DNA of 64,000 nt from the NCBI RefSeq assembly GCF_001677475.2, contig NZ_CP015229.1; one strand, given 5' to 3'. Origin of the DNA: Escherichia coli (GTDB lineage: Bacteria > Pseudomonadota > Gammaproteobacteria > Enterobacterales > Enterobacteriaceae). A program made the position numbers. Position 1 is the stretch's first letter. Every line of letters begins with the position of its first letter. Below, piece by piece: positions 13,001-16,000 of the stretch.

Positions 13001-16000
13001 ATGGTATTTTCAGAGATTATGAATTGCCGCATTATAGCCTAATAACGCGCATCTTTCATGACGGCAAACAATAGGGTAGTATTGACAAGCCAATTACAAA
13101 TCATTAACAAAAAATTGCTCTAAAGCATCCGTATCGCAGGACGCAAACGCATATGCAACGTGGTGGCAGACGAGCAAACCAGTAGCGCTCGAAGGAGAGG
13201 TGAATGGAAAGTAAAGTAGTTGTTCCGGCACAAGGCAAGAAGATCACCCTGCAAAACGGCAAACTCAACGTTCCTGAAAATCCGATTATCCCTTACATTG
13301 AAGGTGATGGAATCGGTGTAGATGTAACCCCAGCCATGCTGAAAGTGGTCGACGCTGCAGTCGAGAAAGCCTATAAAGGCGAGCGTAAAATCTCCTGGAT
13401 GGAAATTTACACCGGTGAAAAATCCACACAGGTTTATGGTCAGGATGTCTGGCTGCCTGCTGAAACCCTTGATCTGATTCGTGAATATCGCGTTGCCATT
13501 AAAGGCCCGCTGACCACTCCAGTAGGTGGCGGTATTCGCTCTCTGAACGTTGCTCTGCGCCAGGAACTGGATCTCTACATCTGCCTGCGTCCGGTACGTT
13601 ACTATCAGGGCACTCCAAGCCCGGTTAAACACCCTGAACTGACCGATATGGTTATCTTCCGTGAAAACTCGGAAGACATTTATGCGGGTATCGAATGGAA
13701 AGCAGACTCTGCCGACGCTGAGAAAGTGATTAAATTCCTGCGTGAAGAGATGGGCGTGAAGAAAATTCGCTTCCCGGAACATTGCGGCATCGGTATTAAG
13801 CCGTGTTCTGAAGAAGGCACCAAACGTCTGGTTCGTGCAGCGATCGAATACGCAATTGCTAACGATCGTGACTCTGTGACCCTGGTGCACAAAGGCAACA
13901 TCATGAAGTTCACCGAAGGCGCGTTTAAAGACTGGGGCTACCAGCTGGCGCGTGAAGAGTTTGGCGGTGAACTGATCGACGGCGGCCCGTGGCTGAAAGT
14001 TAAAAACCCGAACACCGGCAAAGAGATCGTCATTAAAGACGTGATTGCTGATGCATTCCTGCAACAGATCCTGCTGCGTCCGGCTGAATATGATGTTATC
14101 GCCTGTATGAACCTGAACGGTGACTACATTTCTGACGCCCTGGCAGCGCAGGTTGGCGGTATCGGTATCGCCCCTGGCGCAAACATCGGTGACGAATGCG
14201 CCCTGTTTGAAGCCACCCACGGTACTGCGCCGAAATATGCCGGTCAGGACAAAGTAAACCCAGGCTCTATTATTCTCTCCGCTGAGATGATGTTACGCCA
14301 TATGGGTTGGACTGAAGCCGCAGACCTGATTGTTAAAGGTATGGAAGGCGCGATCAACGCGAAGACTGTAACCTATGACTTCGAACGTCTGATGGAAGGC
14401 GCTAAACTGCTGAAATGTTCAGAGTTTGGTGATGCGATCATCAAGAACATGTAATTACTACATGTATTAAATATTGAAACGGGCGTATAACACGCCCGTT
14501 GTTTTATTTATGTGGATATTATTAATAGCATGTCGAGCATATTTATATGAAGCCCATTACTTGAGTCCATATGGGCATATTTTTATAATACAACTATTAT
14601 GCAAACATTTATTTGGTATTTCGCTTTCTCCTGGAGGACACTCTTGACTGCTTTTGAGTAAACTCCATAAATCCTTGTTGAATGGTGCGATATTATAAAT
14701 AGTAATAGGGTATTCTTTATCCTTAAAGATAATACCAGATTTAACCGGTTTAAATATACTGCCAGGAGGTAGAAATATAGTAGATTGATACCAGATGATC
14801 ATTTTCATATCACCCCATATGGCTGAAAAAGATATGCCGCATGTAGGTTGAATTATTGTGTCAATTACTATCCACTTCATTTGTTATGTCTTATCCCACG
14901 GTGCTTAATATAGTTCATTTGGATGTTCATTTCTTGACTTTGCATATGTGTATATTACTCCCCCAAGAATAAATTAATTAAAAATTAATGTCATTAACTA
15001 TATAAAGCAAAATTTAAAGCAAGGAATCTCAATAGAGATTAAACAAAATGAGATTTAGTGAAAACATTAAATTATTCACTTCGTTTTAGATTTGTTTAGC
15101 TAAAATGTTATACATTCAAATGACTGAACGTTCTGTAATTAAAACATAACCTTTATGCTATTTTGTGCCAATTTGCAAAACATTATGGTTGGCCTTTTAA
15201 TATAACGATAATGATGAATATAAGCATGACCTGAGAATAAGGTTTCAATTTTTGAGTTATATAGGAATGGTTAAACCCGTTCCTGACTAAAATACATATA
15301 ATCGGATGATGACTAAACCAAAACACATGTACGTTAAGTATTGAAACGGGCGTATGGCACGCCCGTTGGTTTTATAAATATGTTAACCGTTATAAAATAA
15401 CGAATAGAAAGTCAAGTGATCACATTTCAAATATCAATTTGATAGTATTGGCCTGGTGATTATTTATGGGTAGCAATAAAAAGACAGTATTTATCATCCA
15501 TAGGGATAGTCTCTGTACTTTTATTTCCATTATGCTAATGCCTTACTGAATTATGAAGCATTTCTTAAGATTCCAACTTTAGCTAGATTAATGGTTTATT
15601 GTTTTCTACATCTTCAATATATAAAAGCGTATTATCAATGGCGTAGTAACTGCGTTTGTTATGATTAACATCAGTAACCCACCGGAAAACGCCCGCGCTT
15701 GCCAGTGTTGAACAGTATTCCCGAAATGTAGATTTTCCGCAAATATGAAGCAATGCGGCCTCTTTTATTTTAACAGGGTTCTTGGTCGTACTAACTTTTA
15801 ACAGGTTCCTGGTTCCTCTTAATAACAAAACCGTGTCATCGTGAGTAATAATTCTGATGTTATCCGTAGCCAGATAATAAATGTAATGTGCAATACGGTG
15901 ATGTTTTAATTCTGAATAAAACCAGGAGAAGTTTTGCTCTTTTCTCACTTGCTCAAACATCTTTTGAAAAACAACGACCTGATCCATCAGGATAATAACC

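Follow-up and report, generated by a model that had tools for sequence, protein, structure and literature searches.

The iraM locus and its upstream tract

We analysed the tract upstream of iraM, the gene of an anti-adaptor that protects RpoS, in a 64,000-nucleotide stretch of Escherichia coli DNA (contig NZ_CP015229.1 of assembly GCF_001677475.2), which is referred to throughout as the window. Through IraM, Mg2+ and acid sensing by PhoQ/PhoP is linked to the stability of RpoS, and the control region of iraM therefore determines the point at which the general stress response sets in. The local gene order is icd, iraM, a gap of 702 bp, ycgX, and then bluR and bluF. The icd gene (13204–14454, plus strand) is intact and adjoins iraM, whose coding sequence of 107 amino acids runs from 14557 to 14880 on the minus strand; the right-hand neighbour of the gap is ycgX (DUF1398; 15583–15987, minus strand). 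With 168.8 bits, the iraM open reading frame (ORF) clears the 121-bit cut-off of NCBIfam NF007393, and the protein is 93% identical to E. coli IraM clusters. IraM homologues bear the precomputed label Pfam PF11183, but a search with the window protein at E values up to 0.01 did not return this family.

The gap upstream of iraM (14881–15582; hereafter the tract) had been described, in a reading made from the sequence alone (the sequence-only reading), as a strongly AT-rich, non-coding leader of about 700 bp holding the control sites of iraM. Its extent and composition were confirmed. The edges fall exactly at the start of iraM (14880) and the end of ycgX (15583), and the G+C fraction is 0.296 compared with 0.485 for the window, a value matched or undercut by 0.25% of 702-bp windows. 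The tract belongs to a low-GC island of approximately 14460–16000 that takes in iraM and ycgX as well. It is the spacer between iraM and ycgX of E. coli; 3,855 of 5,426 complete genomes hold 80% or more of it, at 90–97% identity. The best identity of the window to any of these genomes, over 10 kb of core genes (window 4000–14454), was 98.6%, which suggests that the window comes from a deeply branching lineage of E. coli, or from a cryptic clade, that the complete-genome collection lacks. An Rfam search of 13000–17500 at a permissive threshold gave no match inside the tract at E values up to 1.

Small protein genes in the tract

Two annotated small protein genes lie in the tract, both intact and both on the minus strand. 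The first, ymgK (15139–15183; RefSeq annotation of E. coli, K-12 included), encodes the 14-residue peptide MFCKLAQNSIKVMF. The second, ymgL (15420–15530; present in the ORF list and in RefSeq annotation), encodes 36 amino acids and lies 52 nt downstream of ycgX, with which it is probably co-transcribed. Against Pfam PF23691, whose cut-off is 27 bits, the window YmgL scored 90.5 bits. In K-12 grown in lysogeny broth (LB), YmgK and YmgL have both been detected as chromosomally tagged proteins carrying the sequential peptide affinity (SPA) tag (VanOrsdel et al. 2018, PMC6001520).

Conservation, hairpins and ratios of nonsynonymous to synonymous polymorphism (pN/pS) were compared, here and below, across 10 alleles unless stated otherwise. 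All 10 carry an intact ymgK, with a pN/pS of 0.16 that is based on very few sites. In a set of 12 alleles, ymgL was open in every one and 11 of its 36 residues were variable. Across the 10 alleles its pN/pS was 0.55 versus 1.25 for the frame antisense to it. Retention of an ORF was tried as a coding test and discarded: 15 ORFs of at least 10 codons were open in all 10 alleles, one of them antisense to ymgL. Retention being uninformative at this divergence, the case for ymgK and ymgL rests on the K-12 experiments. A further candidate, a 47-codon ORF with a GTG start (15183–15326, minus strand) whose TAA overlaps the ymgK ATG as TAATG, was rejected as a gene because stops or frameshifts disrupt it in 7 of 10 alleles.

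The tract is thus not simply the non-coding interval that the sequence-only reading took it for. That reading had itself named an expressed ORF within the interval as the finding that would speak against it, and YmgK and YmgL, both made in K-12, are two such products.

An iraM cassette between two copies of the icd terminator

The icd terminator module is present twice at this locus. The first copy (T1; 14460–14513, plus strand; seen in the terminator scan and as repeat family D1) consists of a hairpin at 14478–14500 followed by a T run and, on the other strand, lies just downstream of iraM. The second (T2; 15325–15383, plus strand) is a diverged copy with its hairpin at 15345–15367. The two are about 90% identical by local alignment, and homology stops at the ends of the module. 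On either strand of every one of the 10 alleles, T1 folds with an energy of −15.3 kcal/mol or stronger (−14.8 to −19.3). T2 of the window is likewise intact (−15.3 kcal/mol on both strands). Read on the plus strand, it has the form of a good intrinsic terminator, with a 9-bp stem, 6 G–C pairs and a GGTTTTAT tail; on the minus strand, as read from the sequence, three U follow the stem directly, so that a good T tail is found on the plus strand only. An Rfam hit to tpke11 at T1 (14459–14528) scored 23.5 bits against a gathering score of 43 and was treated as a chance hairpin resemblance.

Together the two copies delimit a cassette of about 865 bp, made up of the 811 bp between them (14514–15324) plus one terminator copy. 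The cassette holds iraM, its upstream 445 bp and ymgK, with direct repeats of the icd terminator at both ends and T2 as its right edge. At least 80% of it was present in 3,901 of the 5,426 complete E. coli genomes (~72%). Beyond the 3,855 genomes that hold the tract, 1,237 had only a partial match to it; among the partial matches listed, most started at window positions 15325, 15345 or 15372, on the left edge of T2 or a little way into it. Full-length copies filed under plasmids were 92–94% identical and several sat in records of chromosome size; we read these as chromosomal sequence filed as plasmid.

The junction of the empty site was read in three cassette-free genomes. Each has icd or icdC, a single terminator, ymgL and ycgX, and lacks both iraM and ymgK; ycgX is therefore kept with or without the cassette. 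Homology at the junction begins exactly at 15325 or is displaced only by the insertion sequence (IS) IS200C. Two of the three alleles lie beside prophage or island DNA, where a 3' fragment of icd has been left by the prophage or island. The third (L019) has an intact icd and no prophage, with IS200C immediately after the T run of the icd terminator. An integrative element is expected to be flanked by direct repeats and to leave one copy at its empty site, and both features were found here.

IS elements lie inside the tract in several E. coli genomes: IS1 (NZ_CP051222 and NZ_OZ501598), IS200C (NZ_CM142927 and L019) and IS5 (L006). This spot has the look of a hot spot for insertion.

The two terminator copies differ in a consistent way. 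In all 10 cassette alleles, T2 carries a CG insertion, an A-to-G change and a loop altered from TAA to TGG. The T1 hairpin is the same as in the empty alleles and in phage copies. The private markers of T2 suggest that this copy entered from elsewhere. No remnant of icd coding sequence was found beside T2, where flank alignments were no better than those of shuffled sequence. We also considered whether the module is a dispersed repeat family and rejected this, since its 1–4 copies per genome (median 2) are all explicable by the icd locus and prophages.

Phage relatives and the origin of the cassette

Relatives of IraM at 60–70% identity were found in lambdoid and Stx2 (Shiga toxin 2) prophages of E. 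coli and E. albertii, in a slot between the Q antiterminator region and the nanS-like esterase and lysis genes, on the opposite strand. Genes of the iraL type were seen in E. coli sequence type 131 (ST131), in 46 phage records and in E. albertii; two homologues placed in the prophage Q–lysis slot (L007, 5985–6320, and L010, 4001–4336) come from E. coli ST131 and E. albertii. In phage 21 and related phages, whose integration site is icd, a pseudogene of the icd 3' end stands beside attP and int, and the terminator module found here comes directly after it. Prophage relatives of IraM and icd phages with the same module together support a horizontal origin. The source of the non-coding DNA of the cassette was not found, the phages matching only the coding sequence and the terminator module.

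A pattern-limited scan of one genome per species, which returned 3 loci, gave no IraM-type gene in any other species representative. Its sole high-identity match was a 558-bp contig of approximately 1x coverage in an Oceanospirillum linum assembly (L011), which holds an E. coli-type iraM (94% identity over residues 1–47) plus upstream tract and is almost certainly E. coli contamination.

We infer that an element once came in at the icd terminator or attachment hot spot and that the cassette is what is left of it; the order of insertion and loss is likewise inferred. A competing reading holds that the cassette is ancestral to E. coli, not inserted into an empty site, and that the empty alleles are deletions by recombination between the terminator copies. 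Direct repeats 55 bp long are able to mediate such an event. Despite its deep branching, the window lineage has the cassette, the alleles are old (synonymous diversity, pS, of 0.10 in iraM compared with 0.034 in ycgX), and two of the three empty alleles adjoin prophage or island DNA. With cassette alleles this old and a window lineage that branches deeply, the empty alleles may be deletions. However, the empty alleles have T1-type sequence through the whole hairpin, one of them has an intact icd and no prophage, and the pattern-limited scan found no IraM-type gene in the other species representatives, barring the presumed contaminant. The cassette must in either case have entered once, and the markers of T2 point to a copy from elsewhere. 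We give an ancestral cassette somewhat less than an even chance.

PhoP-type sites and the iraM leader

In K-12, iraM is PhoP-dependent, according to reviews citing Bougdour 2008. We scanned the tract for PhoP boxes with the pattern (T/G)GTTTA-N5-(T/G)GTTTA, allowing up to two mismatches, and used the phoP promoter of the window as an internal reference for the spacing between box and hexamer. The sequence-only reading had credited this promoter with a clear PhoP box, rightly so: the box is perfect (GGTTTATTTAATGTTTA, 8590–8606, minus strand) and lies 12 nt upstream of CATAAT.

Two sites were found in the tract, each with two mismatches. The first is a candidate PhoP-activated iraM promoter (15011–15045, minus strand), in which the box TGTTTAATCTCTATTGA (TGTTTA-ATCTC-TATTGA, 15045 to 15029) is followed after 12 nt by a −10-like TAAATT (15016 to 15011). 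Its first half-site and −10 element are invariant in the 10 alleles, and its second half-site is variable. If this is the box that PhoP uses, transcription of iraM is predicted to start near 15004, giving a leader of about 124 nt. The second site (15082–15116) is on the plus strand and faces away from iraM; here the box CGTTTTAGATTTGTTTA (CGTTTT-AGATT-TGTTTA, 15082–15098) is followed after 12 nt by a −10-like TACATT (15111–15116). This site may serve iraM as a distal PhoP site in reverse orientation, or it may be a promoter in its own right on the plus strand.

Both boxes thus stand 12 nt from a TAnnnT hexamer, the spacing of the window's phoP promoter, and two boxes so spaced occurred in 0.1% of 1,000 dinucleotide shuffles of the tract. 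Mean pairwise divergence across the tract is 5–7.6%, below that of iraM synonymous sites (10%), and its best-conserved block (15029–15128) houses both boxes. Invariant blocks were found at 15039–15056, 15078–15099 and 15104–15128, of which the last two are the longest and cover the plus-strand site. The expectation that the tract holds control sites of iraM is supported by the two boxes with phoP-like spacing; only the iraM-proximal ~250 bp resemble a promoter and leader.

The AT-richness of the tract is sufficient to make it a plausible H-NS target, judging from its composition. A scan for H-NS motifs gave a density of 12.8 per kb versus 3.7 per kb in the window (3.5-fold), as expected for such composition. 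Regulation of iraM by H-NS is named in the title of Battesti et al. 2012, and H-NS reportedly represses iraM in K-12.

Between the predicted start and iraM lies a candidate leader ORF of 22 codons (14877–14945, minus strand; read from the sequence, with no annotation seen), whose TGA shares the sequence ATGA with the iraM ATG. All 10 alleles keep it open, yet it has a pN/pS of 1.4, the mark of a peptide without constraint; iraM and ycgX themselves have values of 0.21 and 0.10. The ORF may matter only via translational coupling to iraM, if at all. Twelve nucleotides before it, on the iraM strand, is a G tract with the Shine–Dalgarno-like sequence GGGGGAG (14958–14964). The length of this tract is hypervariable, from 3 to 12 G among the 10 alleles. 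K-12, L017 and L018 share the same 702-bp tract otherwise but have 8, 11 and 12 G, which suggests rapid slippage. The fold z-score of the iraM leader was +0.39, indicating no unusual folding.

We considered whether the plus-strand site is a PhoP-type promoter (box 15082–15098, −10 at 15111–15116) that drives a PhoP-dependent antisense or small RNA of ~255 nt, divergent from iraM, antisense to ymgK and ending at T2 (15345–15376). The canonical spacing from box to hexamer, the position of the site in the longest invariant blocks, the good plus-strand terminator form of T2 in the window and a TATAAT in the spacer of the same region in K-12 are all consistent with such an RNA. However, the motif is equally explained by a distal PhoP site in reverse orientation that acts on iraM, half of the alleles have a weakened T2 hairpin, the interval had no Rfam match, and its fold z-score of −1.47 gave no structured signal beyond the terminator. 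Nor is there a 3' end here in K-12 term-seq tables, though these were not made in low Mg2+. We regard this RNA as unlikely. Also unlikely is the more elaborate arrangement in which the core of the tract would be a divergent pair of PhoP-type promoters, one serving iraM through a slippage-prone G-tract leader with an ATGA-coupled 22-codon ORF, and the other an unannotated RNA of ~255 nt antisense to ymgK that ends at the relic icd terminator. If it were true, an RNA not described so far would be among the outputs of Mg2+ signalling, and strains could tune the translation of iraM through the length of the G tract.

Interpretation

Taken together, these results favour, with a probability of roughly 80%, a reading of the tract as a three-piece mosaic of the iraM–ycgX spacer. 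On this reading, the first piece (14881–15324) is the part of the horizontally acquired cassette that carries the iraM leader, a PhoP-activated promoter zone at approximately 15011–15128, and ymgK. The second (15325–15383) is the second icd terminator module, left at the cassette boundary, and the third (15384–15582) the older icd–ycgX spacer of ~200 bp with ymgL. In its present position, T2 could stop transcripts from ycgX and ymgL before they reach the iraM promoter and so insulate it, and could end any plus-strand transcript from the promoter zone.

Several observations weigh against this reading. The cassette contains no integrase and no icd coding remnant, only iraM and ymgK lying between the repeats; as an integrative element it is a decayed remnant at best, and its route of entry is unproven. 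The T2 hairpin reaches −15.3 kcal/mol in 5 of 10 alleles; in the other five, K-12 included, it is weakened by uncompensated changes in the stem (−8 to −10 kcal/mol on the plus strand and −9.7 to −13.4 on the minus strand), so a terminator role is not clearly maintained and T2 may be a mere relic. When no spacing rule was applied, at least two boxes with at most two mismatches occurred in 17.5% of shuffles, making the box motif weak when taken alone. The iraM start and the PhoP site were placed here by motif and are not tied to published K-12 mapping. For this tract, nothing was found in the K-12 3'-end, Cappable-seq and SMRT-Cappable-seq (single-molecule real-time Cappable-seq) supplements or in a preprint on small proteins in low Mg2+. 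Finally, all evidence of expression comes from K-12 and not from the window lineage, which is at most 98.6% identical to any complete genome.

It is improbable that the whole 700 bp is a purely non-coding, nucleoid-silenced regulatory leader of iraM, as its AT-richness, its PhoP-like boxes, the lack of an Rfam family and the weak or absent constraint on YmgL and the candidate leader peptide might suggest, because YmgK and YmgL are made in K-12 and intact here, a terminator hairpin divides the tract into two halves, and the cassette-free genomes read have the right 258 bp downstream of icd although they lack iraM, so that this part cannot be iraM-specific.

In outline, then, the sequence-only reading holds for a tract that is AT-rich, acquired and controlled by PhoP and H-NS, its horizontal acquisition being supported by the patchy distribution of the cassette among E. 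coli genomes and by the IraM relatives in prophages. It does not hold for a single 700-bp leader, the remainder being ymgK, a duplicated icd terminator and ymgL. To call the interval uncharacterised regulatory space was an overstatement, since the region and its regulators have been described for K-12. For the same reason no new kind of element is added here, and we agree that nothing at this locus is novel: it comprises the known control region of iraM, two known small protein genes and a relic terminator. What the analysis contributes is the exact anatomy of the region (cassette, relic terminator and older spacer) and evidence that iraM and its promoter make up a cassette, related to phages and present in some genomes only, at the attachment hot spot of icd. 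It also carries a caution, in that apparently empty AT-rich spacers in E. coli often house validated small protein genes. Three leads arise from the tract: a putative second promoter of the PhoP type facing away from iraM, the leader ORF and the G tract of variable length.

Three observations outside the tract are recorded here. Within ycgX, an ORF-internal 3' end appears in the supplement of Adams et al. 2021 (K-12 position 1212983, minus strand; approximately window 15862), the sole nearby entry in the K-12 3'-end data. Elsewhere in the window, 28764–28906 is a tandem array of 23.8 copies of the 6-nt unit AACCCA (84% matches), probably a repeated dipeptide if coding, and 47071–47226 is a tandem array of period 12 or 36 (GGTTTTCTTGCA; 13 copies, 70% matches).

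Comparison with known systems

The closest counterpart is the spacer between iraM (ycgW) and ycgX of K-12 (b1160–b1161), which shares the gene order, ymgK (b4738), ymgL (b4739), the duplicated terminator and the candidate PhoP boxes, and whose tract is ~90.5–92% identical to that of the window. Between 14991 and 15190, adding 1,197,121 to a window position gives the K-12 position. The two differ in that icd is intact and adjacent to iraM in the window, which lacks the e14 prophage. YmgK and YmgL each differ by 3 amino-acid changes, and the T2 hairpin is intact in the window and mismatched in K-12. The G tract has 5 G in the window versus 8 in K-12, and there is a 7-bp indel at 14984–14990.

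With PhoP-activated promoters that carry the box over the −35 position, such as phoP P1, the iraM region shares the direct repeat, the 12-nt spacing and the −10-like hexamer. By sequence match, however, phoP P1 has no mismatches, whereas each of the boxes proposed for the iraM region has two, and the iraM region has two oppositely oriented boxes 36 bp apart.

The iraL gene and the prophage homologues of IraM (CFT073, ST131, Stx2 phages and E. albertii) encode proteins with ~60–67% amino-acid identity, from genes antisense to neighbouring phage late genes. In contrast to this likeness in the coding region, the upstream tract has no phage match, and the published sequence of the iraL 5' end (its promoter) is absent from the window. 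Expression of iraL has been reported in log phase, and not as PhoP-dependent (PMC4045071).

The last comparison is with icd as an attachment site of e14 and phage 21, at which the incoming phage brings its own icd 3' end and terminator to replace those of the host. Unlike these elements, the iraM cassette lacks an integrase, arm repeats of attP and any remnant of icd coding sequence, and its repeat spans the terminator only and not the 3' coding segment of icd. The likeness lies in the module itself, the same one that stands by attP and int in phage 21-like genomes, and in the locus, where many genomes carry prophage or island insertions.

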